Below are positions 1,228 to 31,258 of a stretch of DNA of 64,000 nucleotides, piece after piece. A model generated the notes under the pieces. It did no database searches. It saw only the letters and a program-made list of their open reading frames with translations, and had not been told where the DNA came from. The translations under genes were made by a program, and so were the position numbers. Source of the stretch: Deltaproteobacteria bacterium (GTDB lineage Bacteria > Myxococcota > XYA12-FULL-58-9 > JABJBS01); NCBI GenBank assembly GCA_018668695.1, contig JABJBS010000308.1, positions 1,430-65,429 on the forward strand. The letters are read 5' to 3'. How positions within the stretch are numbered: the stretch's first letter is position 1; each line of letters begins with the position of its first letter.

Positions 1228-1231
1228 GCCA

Positions 1232-1582: not shown

Positions 1583-1623
1583 TTTAGTTCTTTCTTTTCG
1601 CTATAAACGAGCGGCGCGGTAGA

Positions 1624-3038: not shown

Positions 3039-3911
3039 ATGGCAGCACAAACAAAACGCAGTTCAGAACTTCAGAACCTCGTCGAAAACACCGTTGATCT
3101 CCCGGTGGTTCCTATGGTCGCAAGCCGGGTAATCGACGAAGTCGCCAATCACAAAAGTACGGCAGACAGTCTCTCAAAGATTATCGGGCAAGATCAGGCC
3201 CTACTCGGACGAATCCTTCGAATCGCCAACAGTCCGTTTTATAGAGGTCGAATCCCCACGAGTACCCTTCAAGCAGCTATTGTTCGCTTAGGGCCCGCAC
3301 TGGTGCGTGACCTTGTCATATCTCTTTCGACACAATCGCTCTTCAAAGAGTTCGATAGCTTTGAACAACAGATGTGGAATCACAGTTTGGCGGCAGCGTT
3401 TGGGGCGCAACTCGTCGCCGCGGAAGCTCATGTCGCAAACCCGGATGAAGCATTTGTGGCTGGTCTCCTTCACGACGTCGGAAAAACGATTCTCGTGAAT
3501 CACAATCCCGACTACTCGGATCTCTTACTTGAAGCGAATGCTAACAACCGCCCTCACCATGAAGTCGAGCGTGAAGCATACGGTTTTGACCATGCTGATG
3601 TTGGCGGGGTTCTCATGGGTAAGTGGCAGCTTGCCGACACACTCGTAGAATCCGTTCGCTACCATCATCGCCTTGACGAGCTGGAAGAAGCCCCTCAAAG
3701 CGCGCGAGCTCTTATCTGCGTCATCGCGGTCGCCGATTCTCTGGCCTATAAATTAGGTTTATCCATTGGCGAAACGGTTCGCCCCCTTGAAGCCGATACA
3801 CATGTTGGTTGTAAAATTCTTGGACTGAACCAGGAGCAAATTGAGACTCTCTCAGAAAAACTCAAAGAGACCTATGACGCCAATTATGAATTAATGGGCG
3901 GAGCTGGCTAG
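3039..3911 (+). CDS. HDOD domain signalling protein
   Basis: Start at ATG 3039 (MAAQTKRSS...). LPVVPMVASRVIDEV..., LLHDVGKTILV and FDHADVGGVLMGKW are typical HDOD (HD-related output domain) signatures. Confidence 0.8.
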   Translation: MAAQTKRSSELQNLVENTVDLPVVPMVASRVIDEVANHKSTADSLSKIIGQDQALLGRILRIANSPFYRGRIPTSTLQAAIVRLGPALVRDLVISLSTQSLFKEFDSFEQQMWNHSLAAAFGAQLVAAEAHVANPDEAFVAGLLHDVGKTILVNHNPDYSDLLLEANANNRPHHEVEREAYGFDHADVGGVLMGKWQLADTLVESVRYHHRLDELEEAPQSARALICVIAVADSLAYKLGLSIGETVRPLEADTHVGCKILGLNQEQIETLSEKLKETYDANYELMGGAG

Positions 3912-8985: not shown

Positions 8986-11900
8986 TTACTGCAACGAGCC
9001 AGTCATTCGGTAATAACTCCCAGTACGGTCGAGAGACCCATTCGTTAAGCCCCATACCTCGCTTTGTGGCAAACCAGCCAAACCGCCAACATCAAATTCC
9101 GGCAACGGAATCGAACCTACTGCAGCGCTTAAAAGCTGAGGAACAACCAGCCTGAGAACCTCGGTAAAGAGGTCACTCATCGGTCCTTGGAAGGATGGCT
9201 CATCGATATCGACCACTTGCACCCAGATATCAGGGTCGTCGTCTAAAGAGACGATCAAGGAGTTGGTCGTAGGGTCAATATCTAAGAAACCACCAATGAT
9301 GGTTGACAGATAAAGTGAGACATTTATGTTTCCGAAGCCCTCGATATTCACCGCGGCATCAATCAGCACATCGCCGAGACCGATTTGAATTTCATTAGCA
9401 CCTTCGCCCGGCATCAGTACCGGAGGCGAGAGTGCGTCGAATGACAGGGATATATTGTCAAAAGCTCCCCCACCACTTGTTTGACCTCCGCCGCAGACAC
9501 AACACATTGTGCCTGAGGTAAAATCACCATCGTCATAATTTCCACACCAAGAAGGGGAAGCCGCATACTCCGCACAGCCATCACCGTAAGGGTCAGTGGC
9601 TCCATTGTCAGTATCGGCGCAAGTCGCTTCACTGCCATCGTCCAGGAGTGAGCTCAAATCCGAAATATTCAAACCGCCGCCATACCACATTCCCCAAAGC
9701 ACTTGGTTGATGAGATCATCTTTTAAGCCCACTCCAAATGCGTACGACGAGCTGCTAAATGCTGGGGTGCTACCGTTCTTACGAACCGAGCCTCTGCTAT
9801 CCCAAGGAATGGTCGCGCCCCGCGATGATGGATAAACCTGAGTATAAAGCCCCAAATCACCGTAGCCAGAGCCAGCTGGCCCGCTGAAACCGAGCATATC
9901 CAACGCAGAAGAAAGGTTCAGTGAGATGTTGACCGGCGCCGGTATATCGATTGCCGTAGCCACTTCAAAACCCGATAAGAAGTCTTGTAAAAGCGGTGCC
10001 ACTTGCTCGCGCACCGCACTGGAAAGCTCATCTTCAATTTGACTCTCAAAGATACCCACAATGGCATTCACAATGGGGTTCACCAGAAAATCGATGAAAT
10101 CCAGCGCTCCAAAATCCATGTCGATATAGAGGCCGCTGATATCTACGGCTAAGCAGCTGTTGCAAATCGATACGTTTGGAGAGGTTCCTGAAAGAGAAAT
10201 ATCAATGGAGCCCGCTATACTCACAGAGCTTGCTTCAACATCACCATAGATATTGAGCCCCGTCTCACCCAAGCATCCAGTATCCAAATGCCCATGAACC
10301 TTAAGCGGGAGGTTAAGATTATTCATCCCCATGCTCAGGGCGACTCCACCGTCTTCAGCCACAATATAATCGATAACAGGCGAGGTATAACTAAATATAC
10401 CGTTCTTGGTAATCTTATAGCCGGTTCTTTGATTCGTCTCTGTCCAAAAAACGCAGTTATAGCTCGTCGAATCAATATTCCCGTCGCCATTGCTATCTGG
10501 GTCGACCGCAAGCGTTCCTGGAATAGCGGCATTCAAATCAATATTTTGAACCACCGCCTGAGCTAGAGATGCTACGTCATCGATATCGCTGCGGTTACCA
10601 TCATCCATCACGGCTTGATTTAGCCTTGCGACCATCCCCTGGCTTACTCGAGCCGAAGAAACAGCGCCTGTAACAGCCGGGAAATATTGACCGCTTCTTG
10701 TAAAAGATTGAGCTACGACCGCATAGTTACCGCAGCTATCCTCAGCTGTGGCTGTGACCACGTTCAGCCCCCAGCGCGAGGACTGACTCACATCGATAGC
10801 CAGGTTAGTCTGTGTACCATCTGGCGCAAGCGATGTTCCATTCACTGTGGCCACCGTGAGCTCGCTCACTGAATCTACAATCGTTCCGGTCACGTTCACA
10901 TTGAGATCGGACGTTGAGCCAATCATGAGCATCTCAGCGCGCGTTGGGCTACTGAACACGACGGTTGGCGGAGTGGAATCTACGCGAATGGATGAGTAAC
11001 TTGGTTGAATTGTTGAATCCGGGTGCAATGGACCTGCTACTGAAACAACCGTGTCAAAATCGCCCTCGCTTGCCACTTCGAACACCCCAGGTGACGTTTC
11101 AGTCACAGCACCCGCAGGCGTAGACGTTACCTGGATATCGGCATCGACAACTTCATTGCCCCAAAAGTCATAAACAGAAGCGGTGAACGGGAAGCTTCTC
11201 CCCTGCCAATAACAATCCTGCTCAAGAAGGCTGGACGCCCACACATAAGGTAAACCTGGATGGACTGTTACCAAGGGCGGATTTTCATCTTCGGCATCGT
11301 AACCAATCACACCGCAAACAACATATAGGTAGCCCGCACCCGTGGCAGAGAACCCTGTAGTATTTTGAGAAACACCATAGCTCGCAGGCAAAGATCCATT
11401 GGCAGGCGTTACTTCAAAATAAGTATCGAAACCCGTAACGGGGTTGCCGAAAGCGTCTGTCATACTACAGCCAACATCGACAACTGACGTCGGAGTTGTA
11501 TCGCTGCTTGATAGTGTTGTTTCGGTGTAGGCCGGTGGACCCGCCCCTACAGTTATCGTTTCAGCGGTTGCATCAACCAAGGCATCCAGCGTGCACGCAA
11601 CGGTGTATGACCCCACGAAAGTAGCGATGAGGCTGAAACGCCCGCCTCCCACATCTGTGATTTCCACACCCTCGCTAACGTTTAGGCCCAGACCATCGGG
11701 TTGTAAAACAGGGTTACCGTAAGAATCGAAAGCATCACAAGCAACATACGCTCTCTCACCAGCAGAGGTTTGCGTCACCTCAGGAACAGTTTCAACTTGG
11801 GCTGCACCTGAGGGGGCAACAGTAAACCAAGCACCATCGCCATCGAGAACCACACCGTCGGCCGTTGCACATCGAGCCTGGTAGTAACCAGCGGAAGTTG

Positions 11901-12642
11901 GCGTTAAGGTTGCCCCGTTATCATTTACGGTCATATCGACGACGGCGGGAAAGACTTCCACCATGACCGGCACATCGGAGACGGTTTGGCCCGAGAGTGC
12001 AACCGAGCAAACAACATTCAAAGAGCCGCCAGCCACCAAGTTAGACGAGGTTAAAGCAGTGCTAATGGTATAGCGCTTGTCCACCGCAACACGCACCCCG
12101 CCTTGGGATGTGTTACCGGCAAGATCTGTGGCGACGACGCGTATCATCGGGAAGGTCATGCCTGCCCCCACGGAAGCCACGCTTACGGTACCGCTCCATG
12201 TCCCATCCTCATTGCTGGTAATCGTTCCGGCGGCAATATTTTCAGCTTCTAAAGTTACGCTTGCAGGATCAACACCGTCTGCATCCTCGATGGTCACCGA
12301 GACAGAGACGTCACCGTCCACCTGAGCATAAGCCTCAGGTGCTAAGAACGTAATCGTCGGTCCCGGGTTCACTGGTTCGGGCTCGATGTCAGGCTCTGGC
12401 TCTGGCTCGGGGTCTGGCTCGGGGTCTGGTTCAGGGTCTGGTTCAGGGTCCGGCTCGGGGTCTGGTTCGGGCTCCGGCTCGGGAGAGACGCAATCGCCTT
12501 CGACACAGTTTTCCCCCTCCGCGCATTCACTGGCATCTTCACAGTTTGTCGCAATTTGCCCCGGTGTGGTCTCACTTCCACAAGCACTCAGCGCCAAGAG
12601 GACCAGCAACCCTACCCAGTGATACAATTTGGATACTCTCAT
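8986..12642 (-). CDS. Giant lipoprotein: PE/PD linker, Ig-like domain array, C-terminal BPI/LBP-like (TULIP-like) module with a Cys-rich insert
   Basis: Lipobox LLALSAC, followed by CEDASECAEGENCVEGDC and a PEPD linker. The middle shows repeated beta-rich segments (VDSTPPTVVFSSP). From GMVARLNQ (aa ~669) the C-terminus is collinear with the recalled BPI/LBP sequence. It is a paralog of the upstream gene, and both end in (Y/I)RMTGSLQ. Confidence 0.7.
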   Translation of the reverse strand: MRVSKLYHWVGLLVLLALSACGSETTPGQIATNCEDASECAEGENCVEGDCVSPEPEPEPDPEPDPEPDPEPDPEPDPEPEPEPDIEPEPVNPGPTITFLAPEAYAQVDGDVSVSVTIEDADGVDPASVTLEAENIAAGTITSNEDGTWSGTVSVASVGAGMTFPMIRVVATDLAGNTSQGGVRVAVDKRYTISTALTSSNLVAGGSLNVVCSVALSGQTVSDVPVMVEVFPAVVDMTVNDNGATLTPTSAGYYQARCATADGVVLDGDGAWFTVAPSGAAQVETVPEVTQTSAGERAYVACDAFDSYGNPVLQPDGLGLNVSEGVEITDVGGGRFSLIATFVGSYTVACTLDALVDATAETITVGAGPPAYTETTLSSSDTTPTSVVDVGCSMTDAFGNPVTGFDTYFEVTPANGSLPASYGVSQNTTGFSATGAGYLYVVCGVIGYDAEDENPPLVTVHPGLPYVWASSLLEQDCYWQGRSFPFTASVYDFWGNEVVDADIQVTSTPAGAVTETSPGVFEVASEGDFDTVVSVAGPLHPDSTIQPSYSSIRVDSTPPTVVFSSPTRAEMLMIGSTSDLNVNVTGTIVDSVSELTVATVNGTSLAPDGTQTNLAIDVSQSSRWGLNVVTATAEDSCGNYAVVAQSFTRSGQYFPAVTGAVSSARVSQGMVARLNQAVMDDGNRSDIDDVASLAQAVVQNIDLNAAIPGTLAVDPDSNGDGNIDSTSYNCVFWTETNQRTGYKITKNGIFSYTSPVIDYIVAEDGGVALSMGMNNLNLPLKVHGHLDTGCLGETGLNIYGDVEASSVSIAGSIDISLSGTSPNVSICNSCLAVDISGLYIDMDFGALDFIDFLVNPIVNAIVGIFESQIEDELSSAVREQVAPLLQDFLSGFEVATAIDIPAPVNISLNLSSALDMLGFSGPAGSGYGDLGLYTQVYPSSRGATIPWDSRGSVRKNGSTPAFSSSSYAFGVGLKDDLINQVLWGMWYGGGLNISDLSSLLDDGSEATCADTDNGATDPYGDGCAEYAASPSWCGNYDDGDFTSGTMCCVCGGGQTSGGGAFDNISLSFDALSPPVLMPGEGANEIQIGLGDVLIDAAVNIEGFGNINVSLYLSTIIGGFLDIDPTTNSLIVSLDDDPDIWVQVVDIDEPSFQGPMSDLFTEVLRLVVPQLLSAAVGSIPLPEFDVGGLAGLPQSEVWGLTNGSLDRTGSYYRMTGSLQ
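12373..12484 (-). repeat. Low-complexity 6/12-nt periodic repeat encoding the (PE/PD)n linker
   Basis: The plus strand reads ggttcgggctc...ggctctggctctggctcggggtctggctcggggtctggttcagggtctgg... It encodes PEPEPEPDPEPDPEPDPEPDPEPDPEPEPEPDIEPEP. Confidence 0.9.
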
Positions 12643-15600
12643 TGCAGGCTCCCTGTCATCCGAATGTAATCGTTTTTACGGGCGATGGTCACATCACCAA
12701 TTGTCCAGCTGGCGTTGCTATCGAGTCCTGCCAATCCTCCTAAGTCAAACTCAGGAATCGGAAAGGACGAGAGAACGCTCTCCAGTAATTCAGGTATCAC
12801 CAGTGCCATAATACTGGACATCAACTGACTGATCTCTGCTTGGTAAGCAGACTGAGAAATCTCAACCACCTCAACCGCAATGGTGGGATCACCGTCGATG
12901 CTAATCTGAATGGCATGGTTGACCGGATCATAATCAAATGAAGCACCCATGACCGCCGATAGATAAAGGCGTACATCGATTTCCTGGGCCGCTGGTGTTT
13001 CCACTCCAAGTGCATCGGCTAGATTAAGGCTGGCCGTAAGCTCCATATCCCCTATGCCGATTTCAATATCGTTGCCGTTTCGCCCAGGCATCACAACGGG
13101 CGGCAACCCTGCCGACATTCCGAGTTCAACTCCATTGATGTTTGCAGTCGGGACCAGGCCTACAATATCAGGAATCTCAAAAGCGCCTCCGTACCAAATA
13201 GACCACATGATTTGATTCAACGTATTGTCAGATAAACCCACGCCAACCGGATAATTCGGACCAAAAGCAGGCGCCTCATTCGAACGGACAATGGCACCCA
13301 ATGAAGTTGCCGGAATCCCATCGCCTCTTTCCGATGGATAAACCTGGGTGTAAAGCCCAAGGGTCCCGTATCCTGCACCGGCCGGGCCAGAAAAATCTGC
13401 ACCACTCATCCCGCTATAGATGTTGAGTGTCATCCCAATCGGTTCGGGAATATCAAATCCGGTTCCCAAGCTTAGGCCACCGAGCACACTCCCAAGCAAG
13501 TCCGGTACGAGAGCCCGTATTTGAGCCCCGAGAAGCGCTTCGACCGGATCTTCCACTGCTGTCGCCAAATTAGTGAGTAGCTCGTTAATCATCTCATCCA
13601 TGAAACTCAGTGAGCCCCAATTGAAATCAAAAACGACATTGTTGAAATCGATAGCCAAGCACGTTTCACAAACCGACACTGTAGGAGCCGCTCCGTCAAA
13701 ACCAATCGAGCCCTCACCATCAGCACCAATGAAACCGATTCTTACTTCACCGGTAATCGTCTCGACGATTTGGCCACCACATCCCATATCCAGCGACGCA
13801 TGGATTTCAAGCGGCAAAACCAAGCTCTCCATTGAGAAGCCAAAACCCAGGGCATCTTCAACAGCCGTCAAGTGTTCTAATGTGGGATCACCATGCTGGA
13901 GGGCACCAATTTTCTTAACCCAGAAACCGGTCACCTCTTGTGTCACCGTCTCCCCAGAGCAGGTATAAGTGGCTGTTTGTAATTGGTCGCTGCCGTCATT
14001 CGCATTTTCAGGCGAAAAAACCAAGGTGCCGGGCAGTGCTGAATCCAGAGTAAAATCACCAAATATCGTCTGCACTAAAGTCGCTAAATCATCCACGTCC
14101 TGGCGATACTCATCGTCGATGGCCATTTGATTCAAGCGAACAATCATACCATCGAGCACGATGGCTTCTGAGTCAGCTTCTGTGGAGGCCGCTGCGTAAT
14201 TTGGACTTCGTAGAAAAGACTGCTGAGCAACCTTCTTGTTACCGCAGGCATCGGTTGCCGATGTTTCAAACACGCTCAAGCCCCACCGACTGGAGTGTTC
14301 AGCTTCGAAAGCTTCAGTTAATGACGTGCCCGAAACATCGAGCTTACGGCCATCAATTCGCACTTCCTCCAGCTTACTTAGGCTATCCGTGACCGTGCCA
14401 GTAATCGTGACCAATGTATCTTCTTCACTGCCTTCAACAAGCATAGCTCCCCGAACAGGAGAAGTTATCGCAACTTCCGGCGGGGTCGAGTCGACTCTGA
14501 TATTCGCGTAAAATGGCGAGATCAAAGCGAACGGGTCGAGATCTCCCTGTAAGCCCACAGTGATGTCGTAATCACCTTCTTCGTTAAAAATAAGTCCGCC
14601 ATCCAAGGTTCCAACCACACCTGAAGAAGGTGTAACGGAGACATCCAAAATAGGCTCGGCAATCAGGTTACCCCAGCGATCCAACACAGTGACCTCAATC
14701 GGTAACTCAAGCCCCTGCATGAAACAGTCGTAATCAAGTAAATCGACGTTCCAGCTAAAGGGTAAGCCCCCTTTGATTTTCACGATGGACGGACTCTCAT
14801 CACCAGCGAAATAACCGGGCACAGAACAAAAGACATAGTAGTCGCCCGTAATAACCGCGCTCACATTATGATCCGTTACCAAAGCTCCATTTTGAGAAGC
14901 CGTGGTTCCATCGGCCGCGAGCACAGAAACGACTGTGTCATAACCTTCCAAAAGGTTTCCGTAGGTGTCTGTGACCTCGCAGCTCACAGCAACCGGATCT
15001 GTAGGCAAGGCCTCGCCTGTAGAAAGCGTCGTGTGAGAGAACGCAGGCAAGCCTGCTCGGACGACAATGGTCTCAGGAGTTGGGTCAACGACCTCGCCAA
15101 ATCGGCAAGCAATGTCGTATTCCCCGACCAGCGTACCTCGCACGACGAAATCAAGGCCCAATGGAGGCTCAATAATCAACTCAACTGCGTGGTCGAGGTT
15201 AAGTAAATTCCCGTTTTCAAGAGCAGCAATATCAATAATCTCATTATCGTACTCATCATGAGCAACACAGCCCACTGCCCCAGGTACACCGGACACCAGA
15301 GTGTTATCCGAAACACTGGTCTCGATACGAACGATGTCCGCTGGTGTTACCGTGAGTGTTGCCCCCTGGCTATCGGCGACTTCACGCCCCGCGGTCATAC
15401 ATTGAACCGAAAACTCACCCGCTTGAGTTGGGGTAAACGAAGCCGACACGCCGCTTACCGTTATACTTTCCACCATGGGTGAAACGACCACCGCAATTGG
15501 GATGTCTGTAAGCTGCTCACGATCACGGCTGACGATACAAGTCACCTGAGCTGGTTCGCCCGCGTGAATGGTTGCATCAGCGAGGAAGGTCTCCACCACA

Positions 15601-15734
15601 ACACCTTCAAGGTTCACCACCTCGGTGCCGGTGGGTTCATCACCAGTCGTGTCGGAACCAGGGGTTACCCGATTCGTTCCACAGCCGACCAATGAGACAA
15701 CAATCGTTACGACGAGCGAGAATCGTAAAAACAT
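12639..15734 (-). CDS. Giant lipoprotein paralog: Ig-like domain array plus C-terminal BPI/LBP-like (TULIP-like) module
   Basis: Lipobox VSLVGC. It has the same domain order as the downstream gene (VDSTPPEVAITSP, SRWGLSVFETSATDACGN, GMIVRLNQ..., ...YIRMTGSLQ). Its TGA overlaps the downstream ATG (ATGA at 12639-12642). Confidence 0.7.
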   Translation of the reverse strand: MFLRFSLVVTIVVSLVGCGTNRVTPGSDTTGDEPTGTEVVNLEGVVVETFLADATIHAGEPAQVTCIVSRDREQLTDIPIAVVVSPMVESITVSGVSASFTPTQAGEFSVQCMTAGREVADSQGATLTVTPADIVRIETSVSDNTLVSGVPGAVGCVAHDEYDNEIIDIAALENGNLLNLDHAVELIIEPPLGLDFVVRGTLVGEYDIACRFGEVVDPTPETIVVRAGLPAFSHTTLSTGEALPTDPVAVSCEVTDTYGNLLEGYDTVVSVLAADGTTASQNGALVTDHNVSAVITGDYYVFCSVPGYFAGDESPSIVKIKGGLPFSWNVDLLDYDCFMQGLELPIEVTVLDRWGNLIAEPILDVSVTPSSGVVGTLDGGLIFNEEGDYDITVGLQGDLDPFALISPFYANIRVDSTPPEVAITSPVRGAMLVEGSEEDTLVTITGTVTDSLSKLEEVRIDGRKLDVSGTSLTEAFEAEHSSRWGLSVFETSATDACGNKKVAQQSFLRSPNYAAASTEADSEAIVLDGMIVRLNQMAIDDEYRQDVDDLATLVQTIFGDFTLDSALPGTLVFSPENANDGSDQLQTATYTCSGETVTQEVTGFWVKKIGALQHGDPTLEHLTAVEDALGFGFSMESLVLPLEIHASLDMGCGGQIVETITGEVRIGFIGADGEGSIGFDGAAPTVSVCETCLAIDFNNVVFDFNWGSLSFMDEMINELLTNLATAVEDPVEALLGAQIRALVPDLLGSVLGGLSLGTGFDIPEPIGMTLNIYSGMSGADFSGPAGAGYGTLGLYTQVYPSERGDGIPATSLGAIVRSNEAPAFGPNYPVGVGLSDNTLNQIMWSIWYGGAFEIPDIVGLVPTANINGVELGMSAGLPPVVMPGRNGNDIEIGIGDMELTASLNLADALGVETPAAQEIDVRLYLSAVMGASFDYDPVNHAIQISIDGDPTIAVEVVEISQSAYQAEISQLMSSIMALVIPELLESVLSSFPIPEFDLGGLAGLDSNASWTIGDVTIARKNDYIRMTGSLQ

Positions 15735-18128: not shown

Positions 18129-19160
18129 ATGGCGGGCGAAGAACTGCAAGATGACGATTACGGAATCGACGAATCAATGGATAACCTTGATCCCGTTGAT
18201 GATTTAGACGATCTCGACGATCTCGATGACCTTGATGATCTGGACGACCTAGATAGTCTTGAGGACCTCTCTCCTCCCGGACAATCAGCGGACGACATCG
18301 AGGATATCGAAGATGAGGACCCAGAAGAGTCTGGGATTCTACTCAAAGGCCCCGAGGTTCATATCGGCGGCGACGATGAGTACGACGAAGAAGAAAGCCG
18401 AGCCGCACCCGAGCCACGACAACGCTCAAACGAAGAAGAAGACGCCCGAGCCCGAGCCAGGGCACGCGCTGAACGCAACCGGCTTAAAAAGCTTGCCATG
18501 CAAGAAATGGGTGCACCCAAAGAGCCCAGAAGCAGGCAAAGGCGCCAAAAGCCCGAGAGACGACAAGCACAAGCTCCAGCGCGAGAGGCGGCGCCACCCG
18601 GTCCCAAACCCAAACGTGACTACATCAATCAACAAGATTGGCAGAATGGAAAAAATGGCCGCAACCGCGGACCCATGACTGCCAAGACATTTTTGATTGG
18701 TTTTGGAGTCTCTGTCCTCGGAGTGGGGATCTTGGCCATGTTGGTCTTGGTGACCTATGATATTTATGACAAACGCTTTGGAACGGCAGAAAGTCCCGAA
18801 GAAGTGGCCGTCGAAGACTCCAAGAAGAGTAAACTGAGGGTCCCGAAAGGTCTGACAGATCACTTTCAGGGTAAAACACCTGAAGAAGAGGAAGTTCGTG
18901 ATCCTCTGGTTCCGCCTAGCCAACAAGAAGAGGAAATGTTTGAGAAAAGCGCCATTTCCAATCTGTCAGATGACGGCCTTAGAGCGATTTTCGGGCAACT
19001 TGACCTCATGAAGCGCGAAATCAAGCAAGCACAGAAGCGCCAAGAACGTATTGAGGGAGCAGTCGAACAAATCGAGAACATGCTCGATAGTGTCAACGAA
19101 GGGCGCAGTCGTAATAAAAAGCGTAAGGGTAAGAAAAAAGCCTCTAGAAACAGGCGCTGA
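18129..19160 (+). CDS. Hypothetical single-pass membrane protein with acidic (DDL)n and basic disordered N-terminus and a coiled-coil, basic C-terminus
   Basis: DDLDDLDDLDDLDDLDDLDSLEDL is followed by an Arg/Gln-rich stretch, the TM helix FLIGFGVSVLGVGILAMLVLV, and the C-terminal tail KKRKGKKKASRNRR. I recognise no family. Confidence 0.55.
   Translation: MAGEELQDDDYGIDESMDNLDPVDDLDDLDDLDDLDDLDDLDSLEDLSPPGQSADDIEDIEDEDPEESGILLKGPEVHIGGDDEYDEEESRAAPEPRQRSNEEEDARARARARAERNRLKKLAMQEMGAPKEPRSRQRRQKPERRQAQAPAREAAPPGPKPKRDYINQQDWQNGKNGRNRGPMTAKTFLIGFGVSVLGVGILAMLVLVTYDIYDKRFGTAESPEEVAVEDSKKSKLRVPKGLTDHFQGKTPEEEEVRDPLVPPSQQEEEMFEKSAISNLSDDGLRAIFGQLDLMKREIKQAQKRQERIEGAVEQIENMLDSVNEGRSRNKKRKGKKKASRNRR
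18198..18269 (+). repeat. 9-nt periodic coding repeat (Asp-Asp-Leu)x8
   Basis: gat gat tta gac gat ctc gac gat ctc gat gac ctt gat gat ctg gac gac cta gat agt ctt gag gac ctc. Leu codons differ between units (tta, ctc, ctt, ctg, cta). Confidence 0.9.
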
Positions 19161-19249
19161 TTCCAACCTTGGCCTGTCTGGACAATGCGTTAACCACTGG
19201 GTCAAGTCTTACGTAATATCGTCGATGCTGCTTTACGAAGAGACGGCTC

Positions 19250-21481
19250 ATGACAGAAGAACCTCAAAATGATGAACCGACCGAAGAGACAGAGAGCTCG
19301 CTTGAAAGAGTAGCTCAGATTCTTCAACGAGCCCGTTTGTCCAAACACGCCATCTCTCGTGGTGAGGTTCTACGAGGGCTTAGCTCTTGCGAACCCCTAC
19401 ATGTAACTGAAATAGTTGAGGATTATCTTAGTGAGGAAAACAGCGAGATTCAAGAGCTCGCCATTGAGGCGTTGGCTTACATTCCTCCAGAACATCCCGA
19501 TGCCCGTGCGGGCCTTGTCTGCCTCATCGAAACGCTGGAGCAAGGCAAAGAAAATCTAGTTCTCAAAGCGCTCGAGATTCTAACACGTCAAGAACCGCAA
19601 GGGATGGAGAAGCACTTTATTGCCCTCGCCAGCCACGAGTCTGCCCGTGTTCGACAAGCCGTCGCCAAGCGCTTAGCCAGCCTGGATTCAATTCCCGCCA
19701 CCCGGGCTCTGATTGGACTGAGCCGCGAAGATCATGGTGATGCGAGACTCTGGGGACTTCATCACCTTCGCCAACTCGCATTTAGCCAGAATATGGAAGT
19801 CCAAGCGTTGGCTGCCAAACGCCTAGCGCAACAAGATCCCAGCACCACCACAACTCCGCCGATCGTTTTACTGGCCCGTAAGCAAGACAAAGACGTTCGG
19901 GATACATTACGTGAATTACTCAAAAACGAGGTTATCCTCGAGGAAACTGTCGAAGCTGCTCTTGAACTCAAAGATCCCGCGCTTTACGAATACCTCTGGG
20001 ATGCGAATTGGCGATGGGATGGTCAACCCGAGCTTATGGCCCAAGCCTTGGCCGTCTGCCACTGGGATGATTCTCGCTCGACAGATGAACTCGTTGACCA
20101 AGCCCTCAATTCAAAGAACTTCATTGCGGCCGAACAATCCATCGCGCTTTTACAACGGCGTGACGACGAGCAAGTGTTTAACCAAGCAATCACTCTGACT
20201 CAATGTGACACCACTGAAGAACGCCATCTTGGTGCACGCATCCTAGGTAGACTTGGAGGCCCCAATGGCCGCTTTAGAAGTCAGGCTGCTCCCGCATTGA
20301 TCACCCTTCTAGAAGATAAAAGCGAAACGATTATTTCCGAAGCAGTCCGTAGCTTGGGTAATGCAAACACAGAAACCGTTGAATCAACGATTCACAAACT
20401 CAAGAACCACCCTCATGGCGAGGTAAGAAGACTCGTTTCATTTGTGTTGTTTGGGATTGACGACCACTCATCGCCCGAAGCCCTCGTTGCTCTTTCCACT
20501 GCTCGTGAAGGCATGGTGCGTTTGGCCGCTACGCAGGCACTCACCAGTATTCTTACGCCTCAGCCAGGTGTTGAACCAAGTGCACGCACACCCGTGGGTA
20601 TGCCCCTGGGAGGCCGCCGCGGCCAAGCACAAGAGTTTGACGAGAATGAAGATTTCGAAAGCTATGGATACGGCAGGGCCTCTGCGCAAAACGGTGGCGT
20701 GGGCTCTTATGCCGGGGCTGACTTCGATCCCAACAAGAGCACGGTACCGAAAGCGAAACCCAAAAATCGTCTTCTAATTTTCGCATCGGCTGGTTTGATT
20801 GTGAGTATCATCACGATAGCTGGGCTCTACATCGTTCAACAAACACAACGTGCAAGCATAGATGCCCAAGCCGAGGAAATGAACTCAGCTGAATCACCAG
20901 ATCTCAAACCAGAGCAAATGATAGACACCAAAGCTAAAAGTCGCATGTTTGGTGATCGCAGAGCCGCACAAGTCCTGTCCATGCTCAAACGTCCGATTCG
21001 GGCACTGCTTACGGATAAATCCGAATGCTGGTACATGTATTTTCGCATGGACATACGTGACTCCACCGCCATTATCAGTCGAGCGCAAGTTCCGAAGTCG
21101 AAAAATAGTGTTGATGCTATCGCCCTTGAATATCTCACCCGATTAATTGTGGGAGAAGTTAATGGCGACCAACATGAAAAGGCAGGTAAATTTCTAATCA
21201 GCCTTGTTGCTCGAAATCCCAAACTGGGAAGTTACCTCTTTGAACAAGTTATCGCTGATATCAACTTTTATCAAAGAGATGACCTCATCCGCGATATGGC
21301 GTCAATGTCAGACGACTTTAGAGCACGCCTCGCCGGTGAGGGTTACTCCACGGCCTTTCATCCAGGTTTATCACTTTTGACGACTCGAGCGCGTACCTTG
21401 ATGATTGACGAGCTTCAAAGTGGTTGGTCTCAAAATGACGAATACATACTCAGCCGCCATCTCAGCCAAATCAAAAAATGA
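19250..21481 (+). CDS. HEAT-repeat protein with a central transmembrane helix
   Basis: Repeated HEAT/PBS-lyase-like units (EIQELAIEALAYIP, ARVRQAVAKRLASL, GEVRRLVSFVLFGI, MVRLAATQALTSI) and the TM helix LLIFASAGLIVSIITIAGLYIV. The function is unknown. Confidence 0.6.
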   Translation: MTEEPQNDEPTEETESSLERVAQILQRARLSKHAISRGEVLRGLSSCEPLHVTEIVEDYLSEENSEIQELAIEALAYIPPEHPDARAGLVCLIETLEQGKENLVLKALEILTRQEPQGMEKHFIALASHESARVRQAVAKRLASLDSIPATRALIGLSREDHGDARLWGLHHLRQLAFSQNMEVQALAAKRLAQQDPSTTTTPPIVLLARKQDKDVRDTLRELLKNEVILEETVEAALELKDPALYEYLWDANWRWDGQPELMAQALAVCHWDDSRSTDELVDQALNSKNFIAAEQSIALLQRRDDEQVFNQAITLTQCDTTEERHLGARILGRLGGPNGRFRSQAAPALITLLEDKSETIISEAVRSLGNANTETVESTIHKLKNHPHGEVRRLVSFVLFGIDDHSSPEALVALSTAREGMVRLAATQALTSILTPQPGVEPSARTPVGMPLGGRRGQAQEFDENEDFESYGYGRASAQNGGVGSYAGADFDPNKSTVPKAKPKNRLLIFASAGLIVSIITIAGLYIVQQTQRASIDAQAEEMNSAESPDLKPEQMIDTKAKSRMFGDRRAAQVLSMLKRPIRALLTDKSECWYMYFRMDIRDSTAIISRAQVPKSKNSVDAIALEYLTRLIVGEVNGDQHEKAGKFLISLVARNPKLGSYLFEQVIADINFYQRDDLIRDMASMSDDFRARLAGEGYSTAFHPGLSLLTTRARTLMIDELQSGWSQNDEYILSRHLSQIKK

Positions 21482-22595: not shown

Positions 22596-25484
22596 ATGCG
22601 AACACCATCAGAAATACTCAAATACTACATTCAAGCCATCGAACATTTAAGCGGGGCCAGTGCAGTCTCTCTTTACGTTCCCGATCCACTCGGTGACGGA
22701 GGTCGAGCACTCTTACTCAGTGCTGGTGATGAACCCATTGCGGAACTTCAAAGCATTGACAGTGCCACCCAGTTTGCCCGAACTCAGCCAGACGCAAACG
22801 CCCAAGGGCCACTCGCCAAGCTAATTCCCGAGACGATTCAAAGCAGCACGCAAGATGGTCTTTTGATCCCTTTACGCGCATTGAATCAAGGTAAAGACGA
22901 GCAAACCGCTTGGCTTGGTTTACGCAACCCACAAACCGCGCAAGCTCCAGAATCACTCACTGGCCCCGACGCTATGAAAAGCTGGTGGCAATGGGTCTTA
23001 GAACTGGGTGAAGCAATCACTCGTGATATTATGCGGGTATCCGGTGTTCTCAATGATCCTGTCAGTGGTTTACCAGGACGTGCCGAATTTTTTCAAACCG
23101 TAGACAAAGCTCTTGAGACCAATCAGGGACCATCGACGGCTATGTTGATTCTGAGCCCTGATAACTTTGCAACGATTAACGAATTATGGGGCTTAAAGCT
23201 CGGCGACAAGGTAATCCGAGAAGTTGCTGACGTCCTCCAAAAACAGCTGCGTGAAGATGATTACTTGGTTCGCTATGGCGGTGTTGTCTTCGCTATATTG
23301 TTGCCCAAGACCACGCTGGAGAGCGCTTTCGCTCTCGGAAGCGCAATCCTTGCAGAGCTCGAAAAAAATGAATACCTCGATTCGACGGTGCGATTGCGCT
23401 TCAGTGGCGGTGTCGTCGCCACAACCAGCGAGGAAGCCAGACACCAAAATGCATCACTTGCTTTTATTCAACGCGCCAACCACGCTCTAAACGCCGCAAA
23501 ACGTGCTGGCGGTGGTCGCATCACTGAATGGAAAGCAGACCCTTCCACCGGAACATCCACCGAAGGCGATGAACTCACCGGAATCTTTACCGGCACCATG
23601 GGTAAAGATTATCGAAACATGGTCCTGCTTTGGGAAACCATTGGCTTGATGGCCGAAAGCTCAGATATCGACGAGCTTTCTTCTAAAGTGCTTGGCTGTA
23701 TCAGCAATGCCTTTCGCCCAGATAGAGTCGGACTCTTTCTCCCCGAAAAACCAGATGACCCGCTCGCGCTCCACAGTGGTTTTGTTCTGATTAAAACAGA
23801 GCAAGGCGGCTCCGTGCAAAAGCATACCACCTCGAGTTCACTCTTCTCACTTGAGGCCTCCGAACGCGCACTGCTCGATAAAGCTCACCAGAGTGGCAAA
23901 GTATTATGCTCTTCGATTCCAGGACTAGAAGACAGTGCTCCTAACCTCACTCATGCGGCATTGGTCATTCCTCTGGTTACACGCGAGAACTGCCTTGGCT
24001 GTCTTTACTTAGACCGAGAAAGTGCAAAGCTTGAACTTGATGTTTCCGATGTCCACTTCTTGAAAGTGTTTGGTAATCACATCGCAGTAGCCATCGACCG
24101 CGGTATTCTGGCTCGAGAAGAAGCAGCCCGACAAGAACGTAAGCGGCTCAGGTTATTGGGTGAGGTTCATGAACTTCGACAAGCGCTGGGTCATGCCAAG
24201 CTGGTTCACACCTCACCGCAGATGGAACAGGTTCTCGGCATTGTTCGCCAAGTTGCTCCAACTGACGCCACGGTTTTGGTCACAGGTGAAAGCGGTACCG
24301 GTAAAGGTGTGCTCGCCCGAACTTTTCATAAGTTAAGTCAGCGCGCCGATAAGCCACTGGTTTTGGTCGACTGCAGTGCCATTACGCCCAATCTTATTGA
24401 GAGCGAACTCTTCGGACATGAGCGTGGGGCGTTTACTGGCGCCGACCGCAAGACCGTCGGGCGACTCGCTGAAGCCAACGGCGGAACAGTATTTCTCGAT
24501 GAAATCGGAGAACTCCCCCTCGAGGTGCAGTCTAAGCTCCTCACTTTTGTACAGGACAAACAGCTGATGGCTGTCGGTTCGACAAAAACTCGAACAGTCG
24601 ATGCACGGATCATCGCGGCCACCAACCGAGACTTAGCCGTCGAAGTGGATGCCGGACGATTTCGCCGAGACCTTTACTACCGTCTCAATGTCGTCAGCGT
24701 TGACCTTCCACCTCTTCGAACACGGCCTGATGATATTCTTCTTTTGGCCCGGCACTTCATCGAACGATTTAATGTTCAATACCAAAAAGCCGCGCGAGGA
24801 CTATCCGCCGCGGCTGAGCATGCTCTTTTGAGTTACAACTGGCCCGGTAACATTCGTGAACTGCAAAACCGTGTCATGCGTGCAGTTATTCTAAGCCAAG
24901 TTGAGCTACTTGGGCCTCATGAGCTTGGATTTGATGACAACGCACAAGCCGGGACCAATGCTCCCCCGATTCGAGCCGGAGAACCCAGTATCGCACAGCC
25001 CGCAGCCGAAGTGGCTCCGTCCAATCCTTGGGAAAATCTAAGCGGCATTCTATCGAGCATCATTCAGCAAGTAGACATCAACAGCGGTCATCAACCTCCA
25101 CCCTTTGGCAAGTGGTTAGAGGAAGATCTTATTCAGGCGGCCTTTGATCGCATCGGTGGTATCCACAGACGCGGCGCCGCAGTGCTCGGCATTCCAGAAA
25201 CGACTTTTCGTCGTAAGATGAAACAAATCAAAGCACGCTCGTTGATTGGCCCCATGCCCCGCACGCCAGAGTGGCGTGAGCTTAATGATGTCTTCAATGG
25301 TATCGTTCGGCAGAAAAACACCGACGGAGAAGATTACCTGGTCAGAAGCCGAGATATTTTACTAACTCATGTTCTTCATCGTTTTGGAGACAAGGTAAGT
25401 ATGTCGGCTGCACTTATGGGAGTCACCGAACCAACCATCAGCCGTTGGCGATCCAAGCTGCAGAGTCAGTCTGCAGCAACCTAA
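22596..25484 (+). CDS. Sigma-54-dependent transcriptional activator with N-terminal degenerate GGDEF domain, GAF domain, AAA+ core and two C-terminal HTH motifs
   Basis: The GGDEF-like domain reads DPVSGLPGRAEF...LREDDYLVRYGGVVF...RANHALNAAKRAGGGR. The GAF-like part reads ALVIPLVTRENCLGCLYLDRE. The AAA+ core has GESGTGKGV, ELFGHERGAFTGA and FLDEIGELP. The two HTH motifs are GAAVLGIPETTFRRKMK and AALMGVTEPTISRWRSK. Confidence 0.85.
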   Translation: MRTPSEILKYYIQAIEHLSGASAVSLYVPDPLGDGGRALLLSAGDEPIAELQSIDSATQFARTQPDANAQGPLAKLIPETIQSSTQDGLLIPLRALNQGKDEQTAWLGLRNPQTAQAPESLTGPDAMKSWWQWVLELGEAITRDIMRVSGVLNDPVSGLPGRAEFFQTVDKALETNQGPSTAMLILSPDNFATINELWGLKLGDKVIREVADVLQKQLREDDYLVRYGGVVFAILLPKTTLESAFALGSAILAELEKNEYLDSTVRLRFSGGVVATTSEEARHQNASLAFIQRANHALNAAKRAGGGRITEWKADPSTGTSTEGDELTGIFTGTMGKDYRNMVLLWETIGLMAESSDIDELSSKVLGCISNAFRPDRVGLFLPEKPDDPLALHSGFVLIKTEQGGSVQKHTTSSSLFSLEASERALLDKAHQSGKVLCSSIPGLEDSAPNLTHAALVIPLVTRENCLGCLYLDRESAKLELDVSDVHFLKVFGNHIAVAIDRGILAREEAARQERKRLRLLGEVHELRQALGHAKLVHTSPQMEQVLGIVRQVAPTDATVLVTGESGTGKGVLARTFHKLSQRADKPLVLVDCSAITPNLIESELFGHERGAFTGADRKTVGRLAEANGGTVFLDEIGELPLEVQSKLLTFVQDKQLMAVGSTKTRTVDARIIAATNRDLAVEVDAGRFRRDLYYRLNVVSVDLPPLRTRPDDILLLARHFIERFNVQYQKAARGLSAAAEHALLSYNWPGNIRELQNRVMRAVILSQVELLGPHELGFDDNAQAGTNAPPIRAGEPSIAQPAAEVAPSNPWENLSGILSSIIQQVDINSGHQPPPFGKWLEEDLIQAAFDRIGGIHRRGAAVLGIPETTFRRKMKQIKARSLIGPMPRTPEWRELNDVFNGIVRQKNTDGEDYLVRSRDILLTHVLHRFGDKVSMSAALMGVTEPTISRWRSKLQSQSAAT

Positions 25485-25496
25485 ACTCTAGGAAAT

Positions 25497-26090
25497 TTAG
25501 GGTTCTTTAAGAAACAAAATTCTAGAGAGTTCGAGAGTTGGGTCGCCCTTACCCCACATCGGTACAGCTAGGTCACCCATCGCAGAGCGAATCATCACTT
25601 GAACCGCAACCTGCATCAGCACAAATCGAACCGGAACCCCGGGTCGCATCGTGTCTTTGCCTGCGTTGAGAAAAAAGTTCTCAACCCAATCAAGCACCGG
25701 AACAAATTTCGTTCGAATGATATGTTCACCCTGGGTGCTTGGCCCCGTGAGTTCCTTAAGAACCAATACTGAAACCGCTGGGTGTTCCTTTGCGAAATCA
25801 ATATAAGCCTGGGTAAGTCCAAGCACGATTGCCTCGAAGCTGTCTGTTTCGACCGCGGATCCTTGAAAAACGCCCAGTAGCTTATCAAAAGCCCGTGCGA
25901 CGACCGCGTCGTAGAGCTTTTCTTTGCTCTCGAAATGATAAAGCAAAGACGGCCGAGTAATCCCAGCATCTTTTGCAATGTCGCTTAATCTCGCGGCATC
26001 AAAACCCTGCCCGCCGAAGTGTTTCTCAGCAGCAGTCAACAATCGCTCAGTGGTTGCCACCTGCGAGTCAGATCTTCTTGGTCGTCCCAT
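25497..26090 (-). CDS. TetR/AcrR family transcriptional regulator
   Basis: The N-terminal HTH FDAARLSDIAKDAGITRPSLLYHFESKEKLY is typical of TetR_N. The length is 197 aa. Confidence 0.85.
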   Translation of the reverse strand: MGRPRRSDSQVATTERLLTAAEKHFGGQGFDAARLSDIAKDAGITRPSLLYHFESKEKLYDAVVARAFDKLLGVFQGSAVETDSFEAIVLGLTQAYIDFAKEHPAVSVLVLKELTGPSTQGEHIIRTKFVPVLDWVENFFLNAGKDTMRPGVPVRFVLMQVAVQVMIRSAMGDLAVPMWGKGDPTLELSRILFLKEP

Positions 26091-26210: not shown

Positions 26211-26966
26211 ATGATTGACGGAGATGCTGATGTGTCCCCAATATTCAAACTGAACGGCTCGTTGTCTAAAAGTATGGAAGAAGAATCTAAATATTTCATT
26301 CTACTTTGCTCTGCAAAACGGCAAGGCACTTACGATGAAGTGATTGCCAATGCCGAATACCCGGTTGAGCTGGTGAATACCCCGGACGAATGTCTCAAAG
26401 CATGCGTTCGCCAACCTCCCTATGCAGTCATCGTAGACATGATTACAGGGATGCGAGCTGGGTCGACCAACACCAGTTTACTGGTACTTTATAATCTGGA
26501 GCTCACTTGGCCTGTTCTTAGAAGTACCGCCAAGCGCAACGAACCAGTGATGATTGTATCCACGTCACCTCAAAACACTGAGCCTTTTGCCGAGGCACTC
26601 TCAGCTATCGCCACGGATGACCCTACTTGGCTTCGTCCTCAAACACCGAGACGGTTTATCCGGCAAACTGTTCAATGCCGCTCAAGGTCTCGCGTTCTCA
26701 AGGAATCCGATCACTGGCACCAAGGTACCATCATGGAGCTCAGTACCGGCGGCTGCTTTTTGATTACCTACGACCCACTTCCTATTGATAGTGAAATGGA
26801 ACTGGAAATCTGGGACCTTGCCGATGACGTCATGAGCGTTCAAGGGCACGTCGTCTGGATTCGCGCCTGGGATGATGGGCCAGAGTTACCGGGGATGGGC
26901 GTCGCATTCGACCTAACCTCAGTTCCCCTAGAACTTGCGAAAGCATTAGGCAAAGCCATCGTCTAG
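26211..26966 (+). CDS. PilZ domain protein with an N-terminal receiver-like (non-canonical) region
   Basis: The C-terminal PilZ signature is RRFIR (RxxxR), then ~26 aa later MELSTGGCFL ((D/N)xSxxG with E). An alternative start is ATG 26274. Confidence 0.65.
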   Translation: MIDGDADVSPIFKLNGSLSKSMEEESKYFILLCSAKRQGTYDEVIANAEYPVELVNTPDECLKACVRQPPYAVIVDMITGMRAGSTNTSLLVLYNLELTWPVLRSTAKRNEPVMIVSTSPQNTEPFAEALSAIATDDPTWLRPQTPRRFIRQTVQCRSRSRVLKESDHWHQGTIMELSTGGCFLITYDPLPIDSEMELEIWDLADDVMSVQGHVVWIRAWDDGPELPGMGVAFDLTSVPLELAKALGKAIV

Positions 26967-29614: not shown

Positions 29615-31258
29615 ATGAACCGGCCTGAAGATCCGAGCGAGTCGGCACCCAAACAGCCTATGAAAATTCTCGTAGCCGATGACTCCAGAACCGAGCGACT
29701 GATCTTAAGCGCTCAGTTACGCAAATGGGGATATGACTTCGTGCTCGCCAGCTCTGGCGAAGAAGCTCTCAAACATATGCTCATGCCTGGGCACCCAAGG
29801 TTAGCAATCCTCGATTGGGTCATGCCCGGACTAACAGGGCCTGAAGTGGTGAAGTTCATCCGTAAGAAGATGAAGAACGATTACGTCTACTGCATTCTCG
29901 TCACATCACTCGGTAGTAAAGAAGATATTGTTGAGGGACTTCAGTCGGGAGCTGATGACTACATTACCAAACCGGTTCATGGCGGCGAGCTTCGAGTAAG
30001 ACTCCGTGCAGCCGAGAGACTTCTCAAAGCCTGGGAGGCCATCGCCCGCTCTGAGGCACAAACCCGCGCCATTCTTGATTCAGCAGGTGATGCAGTGCTC
30101 GTCGTCGACCGTACCGGTGGCATCGGCTATGCAAACCCGCGCTCAAGCTTACTCTTGGGCAAACCTGAGCAAGAACTTATCGGAGCTAGCCTCTATGACT
30201 TTTTGCCAACGAACGAAGAGAAAACTTCCGTTACCAACATGTTGCGTAACCTTGAAGCACAGCCAGGGCCCATTGCCCGGTCCCAAAGGATTCAGCTCAA
30301 CATCAAACGCGCCATGCGGGAGACTGCAACCGTAAGCTTGGCGGCAAACTTTCGTCACAGCCAGCCGGACGCCATCAGTATTTTTATGACCGATGTCTCT
30401 GAGCAAAAGCGACTCGAAATCGAACTCCAGCACGCTCGCAAGCTTGAGGCCGTTGGACAACTCGCAGCGGGCATCGCCCACGAAATCAATACGCCAGTGC
30501 AGTTTGTAGGTGACAGCATCACCTACCTCGAGCAATCCTTCCAAGACTTCAACAATCTTCTTGGAACCTATGACTCCATTGTTGGGTCACTGCCTGCGGG
30601 CACTCTATCTGAAGAGCAAGAAGACGACCTCGAAGATGCCAAAGAAGATGCCGATCTTGAGTACCAGCAGGAGCAAATGCCAAAGGCCTTCAGCCGAACT
30701 CAAGAAGGTCTGGCGCGTGTGGCGCGAATCGTCCGGGCCATGAAAGAATTCTCGAGAAAAGATGCAACACTCGGTGTTGAGCCTGCAGACTTAAACCGCG
30801 CTCTTGAGAGTACATTGGTCGTCGCCCAAAACGAATATCGCTATGTTGCAGATGTCGAACGCCAATTTAACGAGCTCCCTCAGGTGCAATGTAACCTCGG
30901 CGACCTCAACCAGGTATTTTTAAATTTACTGGTCAACGCCAGCCATGCCATCACCGATGCGAACGAAGGCACCGGCAAACGTGGGATCATTCGAATCACC
31001 ACTCACAAACTCGGTGAAGATTGGGTACGGATTGATATCGCTGATTCTGGAACAGGGATTCCCGAAGAAGTTCGCGACCGAATCTTTGAACCCTTCTACA
31101 CCACCAAGGAAGTTGGCAAGGGTACTGGACAAGGCCTTGCGATTGCACACTCCATTGTTGTGGATAAGCATCAAGGCAAGTTGGATTTCAAAACGCAAAC
31201 AGGTGTTGGAACAACTTTTTCAGTGCACTTACCTGTGCGTGGTCCCGCCGAGCACTAA
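29615..31258 (+). CDS. Receiver-PAS-histidine kinase hybrid sensor
   Basis: The REC reads ILVADDSRTERL...AILDWVMPGLTG...YITKP. The PAS-like part reads ILDSAGDAVLVVDRTGGIGYANP. The H-box is AAGIAHEINTPVQFV. The HATPase part reads LLVNASHAI, DSGTGIPEEV and GTGQGLAI. Confidence 0.85.
   Translation: MNRPEDPSESAPKQPMKILVADDSRTERLILSAQLRKWGYDFVLASSGEEALKHMLMPGHPRLAILDWVMPGLTGPEVVKFIRKKMKNDYVYCILVTSLGSKEDIVEGLQSGADDYITKPVHGGELRVRLRAAERLLKAWEAIARSEAQTRAILDSAGDAVLVVDRTGGIGYANPRSSLLLGKPEQELIGASLYDFLPTNEEKTSVTNMLRNLEAQPGPIARSQRIQLNIKRAMRETATVSLAANFRHSQPDAISIFMTDVSEQKRLEIELQHARKLEAVGQLAAGIAHEINTPVQFVGDSITYLEQSFQDFNNLLGTYDSIVGSLPAGTLSEEQEDDLEDAKEDADLEYQQEQMPKAFSRTQEGLARVARIVRAMKEFSRKDATLGVEPADLNRALESTLVVAQNEYRYVADVERQFNELPQVQCNLGDLNQVFLNLLVNASHAITDANEGTGKRGIIRITTHKLGEDWVRIDIADSGTGIPEEVRDRIFEPFYTTKEVGKGTGQGLAIAHSIVVDKHQGKLDFKTQTGVGTTFSVHLPVRGPAEH

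Follow-up and report, generated by a model that had tools for sequence, protein, structure and literature searches.

A family of sigma-54 activators in which a catalytically degenerate GGDEF domain retains the RxxD core of a c-di-GMP I-site

The gene at 22596-25484 of a 64,000-nt stretch of contig JABJBS010000308.1 from a Deltaproteobacteria bacterium (the whole stretch is termed the window) encodes a 962-residue sigma-54 enhancer-binding protein (EBP) whose sensor region contains a GGDEF domain. An earlier note on this sequence had proposed that the domain is catalytically dead and is kept as a receptor for cyclic di-GMP (c-di-GMP). We find that the cyclase active site (A-site) is lost, that the RxxD core of the allosteric inhibitory site (I-site) is retained, and that this combination recurs throughout a family of homologous proteins. 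At the level of the family, the c-di-GMP-receptor reading is well supported, and the family probably couples c-di-GMP levels to sigma-54 transcription. In the window protein itself, we put the probability that c-di-GMP binds the RxxD motif, rearranges the GGDEF domains and thereby gates the AAA+ ATPase at about 0.5. The same model would merit somewhat higher confidence for members with a full I-site triad.

The GGDEF domain has lost its active site and keeps the core of the I-site

The sequence of PleD was checked against the PDB, and PleD numbering was then mapped onto the family alignment. The PleD string that the earlier note had quoted, RAIDLPCRYGGEEF, was correct, its coordinates for REDD and RYGGVVF were exact, and its SPDNF reading could be placed on the DNA (Table 1). 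The equivalents of PleD D327, K332, E370, E371 and R446 in the window protein are Ser, Ala, Val, Val and Gly (Gly306), respectively. As all five are replaced, the domain should be unable to make c-di-GMP; judged from these residues it cannot be a cyclase, in agreement with the note, which had considered cyclase activity unlikely. Four further PleD residues are retained: N335 (Asn195), D344 (Asp204), R366 (Arg226) and K442 (Lys302).

The REDD motif lies five residues upstream of GGxxF. In pairwise HMMER comparisons, LREDDYLVRYGGVVF aligned without gaps over IRQSDSAGRYGGEEF (3ign), LREYDLCGRWGGEEF (7e6g) and VRSSDYVFRYGGDEF (DosC), and the I-sites RQSD, REYD and RSSD of these solved cyclases fall gap-free on REDD, as does R359xxD362 of PleD. 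An AlphaFold2 model of residues 1 to 530, built on a 116-sequence alignment, reached a predicted local distance difference test score (pLDDT) of 88.3 and a predicted template modelling score of 0.78. Its GGDEF portion superposed in Foldseek on the c-di-GMP-bound GGDEF domains of 3ign, 6tts and 4zmm with template modelling (TM) scores of 0.82-0.89 and a root-mean-square deviation of 2-2.5 Å. As modelled, this is a genuine GGDEF fold. The stalk helix and GGDEF domain of the model together resemble the coiled-coil-plus-GGDEF unit of DgcB (6ttr); WspR, like DgcB, has a coiled-coil stalk before its GGDEF domain. Given the ungapped alignment and a model that superposes on c-di-GMP-bound domains, REDD is by position the primary I-site, as the note had expected an alignment to reveal, and in the window protein that site is incomplete.

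A family defined by its sensor region

A word-indexed search with the sensor region returned only eight relatives, all with GG[VAS][VI]F at the A-site, and RxxD was present in 7/8 sequences covering that stretch. A scan of 185,579 species genomes was then made with the linker motif that follows the GGDEF domain as bait. It gave 34 loci, all in metagenome-assembled genomes (MAGs): one from Bdellovibrionales, whose protein is 89% identical to the window protein, two from Myxococcota and about 31 from Acidobacteriota (Thermoanaerobaculia, Multivoradales and Vicinamibacteria). Because the motif was the bait, its invariance among these 34 loci follows from the design. No such bias affects an exhaustive HMMER search in which a sensor profile was run against 1.84 billion representatives. 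More than 130 representatives of 50%-identity clusters, mostly of 940-1060 residues, matched the whole sensor in one stretch.

Residues were counted in 134 representatives, found by the profile rather than through the RxxD motif. The R359 position is Arg in 126/134 (94%) and the D362 position is Asp in 122/134 (91%); the R390 position is Lys in 84/134 and Arg in 23/134 (together 107/134, 80%). The full I-site triad is present in 102/134. Conversely, the D327 position is Asn in 99 and Asp in only 6, while the E370 position is Ala in 99, Val in 22, Glu in only four and Asp in only two. Acidic A-site residues are kept by only about 6/134, all distant members, and the A-site is dead in 35/35 locus-derived members. 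Positions N335 and D344 are kept in 132/134 and 131/134, respectively, K442 in 100/134, and the R366 position is Arg or Lys in 125/134. Conservation within the sensor peaks at GIFTGxxxKDYRNMxLLW. Mean column identity is 21%; conservation reaches 90% or more in only about 29 columns, two of which hold the Arg and Asp of RxxD. The weight of the evidence lies in the persistence of RxxD above 90% at such identity, while the catalytic residues have almost always vanished.

An additional RR(x)xD sequence, itself of RxxD type, is conserved in the N-terminal beta3-beta4 loop of most Acidobacteriota members (loci L004-L034). The I-site RxxD is kept in 69/70 members with this loop versus 47/56 without it. 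The loop could provide a second c-di-GMP contact.

Purifying selection clearly maintains the dead GGDEF domain in the lineage of the window protein. Between the window gene and that of locus L001, synonymous sites are saturated (proportion of synonymous differences 0.7-0.9), and the proportion of nonsynonymous differences is lowest in the linker (0.026), followed by the GGDEF domain (0.080) and the GAF domain (0.096), and highest in the N-terminal domain (0.194).

More distant relatives place the family in a wider setting. P0170 and P0177 keep an intact-looking active site (DxD and GG[DE]EF) and RxxD together with the same linker and GAF domain, and are fused to sigma-54 AAA+ and HTH_8 domains; P0180 and P0183, whose active site looks intact as well, are REC-PAS-GGDEF-GAF-sigma54 proteins. 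These four might be bifunctional cyclase-activators. The same GGDEF-linker-GAF module is fused to a histidine kinase in P0166 and to FHA in P0174. Since distant relatives keep the active site and carry other outputs, the window family is a degenerate branch of a wider GGDEF-GAF signalling module.

Family members bear only the names "sigma 54-interacting transcriptional regulator" or "diguanylate cyclase (GGDEF)-like protein" in their sources. No description of a GGDEF-fused sigma-54 activator was found in the full-text literature searched, in which subscription journals are thinly covered, so that absence is not proof. The family is previously undescribed and unstudied.

The closest database protein, P0001 (301 aa, on a 49-kb contig), is 86% identical to the window protein over residues ~225-480 only. 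This partial coverage followed by an unrelated end suggests a frameshifted or mis-called gene in its assembly. Several Acidobacteriota MAGs carry two family paralogues in differing contexts (L010 with L030, L011 with L029, and L019 with L032).

Evidence against c-di-GMP gating, and competing explanations

A number of observations weigh against c-di-GMP gating, above all in the window protein. In this protein Ala250 takes the place of PleD R390, and Thr175 that of the auxiliary R313. The whole Bdellovibrionales/Myxococcota clade is without an R390-type residue, the position being Ala in the window protein and in L001, Gln in L002 (P0058) and Ser in L003 (P0004). The L003 protein has in addition lost RxxD (VGDDG), yet keeps GGVVF, the linker, the GAF domain and the AAA+ module. 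The RR(x)xD loop is missing from the window protein (region of residues ~94-104) and is shortened also in L001 and L002. Retention of RxxD is by itself only moderately informative, because the motif is already present in 20/25 of the nearest generic active cyclases and its persistence is in part inherited. No gene for a c-di-GMP enzyme stands next to the window gene, and neither a thresholded scan nor a reading of the flanking intergenic regions revealed a sigma-54 promoter adjoining it. Every family member stems from MAGs. Finally, in SgmT, a receptor discussed below, enzymatic output is unchanged by c-di-GMP binding, which affects localisation only (PMC3509222).

The proposal of the earlier note that the domain is a c-di-GMP receptor therefore stands in part. 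It is strengthened by the 91-94% retention of RxxD, by selection and by linkage to c-di-GMP enzymes elsewhere in the family, and weakened by the incomplete I-site of the window protein and the lack of an R390-type residue in its clade. The PilZ proteins of the window, the sigma-54-like promoters beside EBP genes elsewhere in the family and the experimental precedent of SgmT also speak for it. Any binding at the window site, which is cut down to its RxxD core, should be less tight or involve different contacts. Provided that c-di-GMP is what the family senses, the window clade has either a weaker or a remodelled site.

Much of this would also follow if the dead GGDEF domain were a ligand-free mechanical relay, a dimerising coupler that carries signals from the N-terminal GAF-like or the central GAF domain via the coiled-coil to the AAA+ domain, with RxxD as an inherited or structural remnant. 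The order of sensor, coiled-coil and GGDEF domain is the standard layout of a cyclase switch, the module is joined to histidine kinase and FHA outputs as well, the RxxD baseline in the ancestors was high, and the window clade, which lacks R390, R313 and the RRxD loop, retains the domain even where RxxD is gone. Such a relay is harder to reconcile with the strong conservation of the RxxD Arg and Asp in the family, the basic residue at the R390 position in 80% of members, and the genomic linkage of members to c-di-GMP enzymes. We know of no structural role for RxxD, which also counts against a relay, and we consider this explanation unlikely.

Two further explanations appear improbable. In one, the remnant A-site would sense a guanine nucleotide, with GTP, (p)ppGpp or monomeric c-di-GMP occupying a half-active-site pocket. 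The degenerate GGDEF domain of the Caulobacter phosphodiesterase PdeA binds GTP, the guanine contacts N335 and D344 and, less uniformly, K442 and a basic residue at R366 are kept in the family, and (p)ppGpp-bound structures of PleD, whichever site the ligand occupies, exist (9g85, 9g86). However, N335 and D344 are core positions of the GGDEF fold generally. Furthermore, uncharged residues stand in place of the metal ligands D327 and E370 as well as of E371, K332 and R446, and with metal ligands and phosphate contacts gone the binding of triphosphate and Mg should be crippled. In the other, c-di-GMP at the I-site would determine where the activator is localised or whether it is sequestered, in the manner of SgmT and PopA, rather than control its ATPase. 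The I-site of SgmT mediates clustering and leaves both kinase activity and phosphotransfer unchanged in vitro (PMC3509222). The GGDEF domain of SgmT, however, is a C-terminal appendage, whereas the domain described here sits between the sensor and the GAF-AAA+ part, to which an invariant helix joins it. Its placement between sensor and output suits allosteric transmission.

A model for c-di-GMP gating

In the model of c-di-GMP gating that we favour, a composite N-terminal sensor (GAF-like domain, coiled-coil, dead GGDEF domain, conserved helix and GAF domain) would control the AAA+ sigma-54 module. The RxxD I-site would let the dead GGDEF domain bind c-di-GMP and so serve as a regulatory module: as in the product-inhibited cyclases PleD and WspR, intercalated c-di-GMP dimers would lock the GGDEF domains in their arrangement. 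The invariant KDYRNMVLLW helix would transmit this change to the GAF domain, which would relay the switch to hexamer assembly or ATPase activity and hence to sigma-54 transcription. In activators of the NifA and NorR types, it is usually a GAF domain that negatively regulates AAA+. In Acidobacteriota, likely local targets would include the adjacent diguanylate cyclase gene, giving transcriptional feedback on c-di-GMP. The broader claim, of a widespread class of sigma-54 activators in Acidobacteriota, Myxococcota and Bdellovibrionota, with the window protein as its first example, a dead GGDEF domain as c-di-GMP input and, at least in Acidobacteriota, feedback through the sigma-54 promoters of adjacent cyclase or phosphodiesterase genes, is put forward tentatively.

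Comparison with characterised receptors and activators

Judged by analogy, the closest characterised analogue is SgmT, a hybrid histidine kinase of Myxococcus xanthus that binds c-di-GMP through its I-site Arg (PMC3509222). Like the window protein, SgmT is cytoplasmic, pairs a degenerate GGDEF domain (GGGVF versus GGVVF) that has an intact RxxD (RHPD versus REDD) with a GAF domain, and has no phosphate contact of the PleD R446 type. Unlike the window protein, it has a histidine kinase output, its GGDEF domain is C-terminal, and its R390 equivalent, R794, is present where the window protein has Ala250. PelD and PopA are further dead-GGDEF receptors that bind c-di-GMP through RxxD (PMC10333796). 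PelD likewise pairs GAF with a degenerate GGDEF domain, but it is bound to the membrane, with its domains in the order GAF-GGDEF, and regulates a polysaccharide synthase. PopA, a REC-REC-GGDEF protein, targets proteolysis, and neither is a transcription factor. Of the features that mark the PopA/PelD/SgmT class, the window protein has the fold, in which the A-site is degenerate, as well as the RxxD motif, and lacks the extra basic residue.

Activators of the sigma-54 AAA+ type that respond to c-di-GMP include FleQ, FlrA and VpsR (PMC10333796) and the EBP EpsI/Nla24 (PMC4877007). In contrast to the window protein these are REC-AAA+-HTH proteins with no GGDEF domain, and FleQ and FlrA have their binding site on the AAA+ domain. 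A site of the FleQ type was rejected for the window protein on comparison at the LFRS Arg (R144) and at R185 and N186, which follow Walker A: in an ungapped alignment with the PDB sequence of FleQ, R144 corresponds to Ala534 and N186 to Thr576, and only the generic R185 is kept (Arg575). The input route would thus differ from that of FleQ, as the earlier note had argued.

NifA, NorR and FhlA share with the window protein a GAF domain directly N-terminal to the sigma-54 AAA+ module and gave the best partial NCBIfam matches. They have no GGDEF domain, whereas the window protein carries one, together with a C-terminus of two helix-turn-helix (HTH) motifs. Assignment as an equivalog was rejected in each case, with scores of 329 against a cut-off of 529 for NifA, 320 against 476 for NorR and 262 against 830 for FhlA.

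Gene and domain architecture

The ATG start of the open reading frame (ORF) agrees with the homologues. The gene is monocistronic; an alpha/beta-hydrolase gene on one side is divergent from it, and a TetR-family regulator gene on the other is convergent. The description of the product in the earlier note as an EBP with GGDEF, GAF and two HTH motifs is borne out by Pfam, the HTH matches being weak and family-conserved. By sequence, the product displays the AAA+/Walker, GAFTGA and Fis-type HTH features of bacterial EBPs, and its AAA+ module, with Walker A, GAFTGA and Walker B, looks functional.

The N-terminal domain may tentatively be taken as a GAF/PAS-like sensor from its modelled fold; a fold search gave weak matches only (E >= 0.014; the Nlh1 GAF domain, the DosS GAF domain and the LasR ligand-binding domain). 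In the model, the KDYRNMVLLW part of GIFTGTMGKDYRNMVLLW begins a helix of residues 335-354 that enters the GAF domain, and a long exit helix of residues 483-529 leads from GAF into AAA+. In the second HTH, GVxxPTxRR is conserved across the family, and P0177 likewise has two HTHs.

Table 1. Coordinates of the EBP gene, its domains and motifs, and associated features (window positions unless a locus is named)
Feature	Position	Strand	Basis or remark
Sigma-54 EBP, whole gene	22596-25484	+	962 aa; sensor of GAF-like domain, coiled-coil, dead GGDEF and GAF
N-terminal alpha/beta domain, residues 1-120, family-specific	22596-22955	+	AlphaFold2, pLDDT 83-88
Long helix, residues 124-152, running into GGDEF	22965-23051	+	AlphaFold2 model; TM 0.82 to 6ttr (target-normalised), 194 aligned columns
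GGDEF domain, residues 153-306, catalytically degenerate	23052-23513	+	Pfam E 2.8e-25; Foldseek
SPDNF, in place of D(I/V)DxFK	23154-23168	+	PleD D327 = Ser187 (metal ligand), K332 = Ala192
REDD, RxxD of primary I-site by position	23250-23261	+	R219 and D222 = PleD R359 and D362
RYGGVVF, degenerate A-site	23271-23291	+	PleD E370 = Val230, E371 = Val231
Ala250, PleD R390 position (third I-site residue)	23343-23345	+	Lys/Arg in 80% of relatives
GIFTGTMGKDYRNMVLLW, best-conserved sensor segment	23580-23633	+	Family alignment, AlphaFold2 model
GAF domain, residues 357-502	23664-24101	+	Pfam; AlphaFold2 model
Sigma-54 AAA+ module and lid	24204-24935	+	Sigma54_activat, residues 537-702, E 5.6e-66; AAA_lid_14, residues 708-780
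Walker A GESGTGKG, residues 564-571	24285-24308	+	Motif search
GAFTGA sigma-54 contact loop, residues 611-616	24426-24443	+	Motif search
Walker B VFLDEIGE, residues 632-639	24489-24512	+	Motif search
First Fis-type HTH, residues 841-877	25116-25226	+	HTH_8, 19.6 bits, just below the 22-bit cut-off; family-conserved
Second, weaker Fis-like HTH, residues 931-957	25386-25466	+	HTH_23 and HTH_29, E about 0.04
TetR-family regulator	25497-26090	-	Convergent with EBP gene; neighbour conserved in L003
PilZ-domain protein, RRFIR...ELSTGG	26211-26966	+	Two genes downstream; 50% identical in L003
Second PilZ gene	57185-57616	-	Domain search
HDOD gene	2886-3911	+	Domain search
Sigma-54-like elements, locus L002	7677-7692 and 9388-9403		Upstream of EBP-adjacent genes

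Genomic context and sigma-54 promoters

The window contains two PilZ genes and one HDOD gene, as the earlier note had listed, and the RxxxR...[D/N/E]xSxxG motif pair is intact in both PilZ proteins. Upstream, the window has a block in common with L001 and L003 that encodes a protein of 343 aa, a HEAT-repeat protein of 743 aa and the alpha/beta-hydrolase; downstream, it has the TetR and PilZ genes in common with L003; and synteny with L002 reaches RpoD, a REC-PAS kinase and MutS2. The EBP-TetR-PilZ order was considered as a sign of functional coupling and given little weight, because the synteny with relatives includes housekeeping genes (RpoD, MutS2). Shared ancestry may explain the synteny of the window clade. 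The genes for the 343-aa protein, which is rich in acidic and basic residues and has no Pfam match, and for the HEAT-repeat protein (18129-21481) are kept immediately upstream in L001, L002 and L003.

In Acidobacteriota the surroundings are of another kind. A divergent HlyD-AcrB-AcrB operon of the resistance-nodulation-division type lies upstream at about 14 loci. A Reg_prop/Y_Y_Y-transmembrane-GGDEF cyclase gene with an intact active site lies downstream on the same strand at at least 12 loci, and a REC-PAS-GGDEF-EAL gene, also downstream on the same strand, is found at several, often between the EBP and cyclase genes. The link of the distant members to c-di-GMP is drawn from this adjacency of cyclase and GGDEF-EAL genes.

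Promoters were sought in upstream regions as TGGCAC-N5-TTGCW, requiring the GG and GC and a match at 10 or more of the 11 specified positions. Sigma-54-like promoters lay upstream of 5/35 EBP-adjacent genes versus 1/150 non-adjacent genes, and in a shuffle control 0/300 runs reached five adjacent matches (mean 0.04). Matches at 3471-3486 in L004 and 12770-12785 in L025 precede the Reg_prop-GGDEF cyclase gene, and that at 4285-4300 in L012 precedes an S8 peptidase gene. Another, in L018, precedes a small ORF. In L002, one match precedes a gene that resembles a membrane histidine kinase by sequence, and a perfect TGGCACGTGAATTGCT precedes the following gene, which is STAS-like by sequence. This enrichment suggests local autoregulatory circuits around the EBP genes of the family.

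Within the window, the sigma-54 consensus occurred 33 times against 35.7 expected, with no match well placed beside the EBP gene. As no such promoter adjoins the gene, its regulon cannot be proposed. The window genes that were scanned included no rpoN. Neither the Rfam nor the tRNA scan gave a match in the window, and on the empty Rfam scan there is no c-di-GMP riboswitch in it.

The remainder of the window is dense in signalling genes. In the region 226-3911, two double-receiver-domain proteins (333 and 420 aa) flank the HDOD/HD protein, and further hybrid kinases are encoded at 29615-31258, 54603-57188 and 60208-61650. Overlapping ORFs of 1218 and 1031 aa on the minus strand (8986-12642 and 12639-15734) probably form an operon; their only Pfam match is to a low-complexity acidic repeat. 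A further minus-strand gene, at 49049-50848, encodes a protein of 599 aa that includes a lipoxygenase domain (PF00305, E 2.8e-17). The lipoxygenase family is uncommon in bacteria.

Significance

The protein described here is a new combination of known modules, an apparent I-site receptor fused to a GAF-regulated EBP, and is not categorically new. The I-site receptors known to date act on the localisation of a kinase, on proteolysis or on polysaccharide synthases. If the c-di-GMP reading is true, a dead-cyclase domain that feeds a sigma-54 AAA+ module by way of a GAF domain would constitute a third route from c-di-GMP to transcription, and would show the reuse of the product-inhibition site of a cyclase as a transcriptional sensor. 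The incomplete site of the window protein offers a natural comparison with its full-triad orthologues, while the adjacent cyclase genes with sigma-54 promoters represent a directly testable regulatory circuit. The family is concentrated in poorly studied phyla, in which second-messenger control is almost unexplored.

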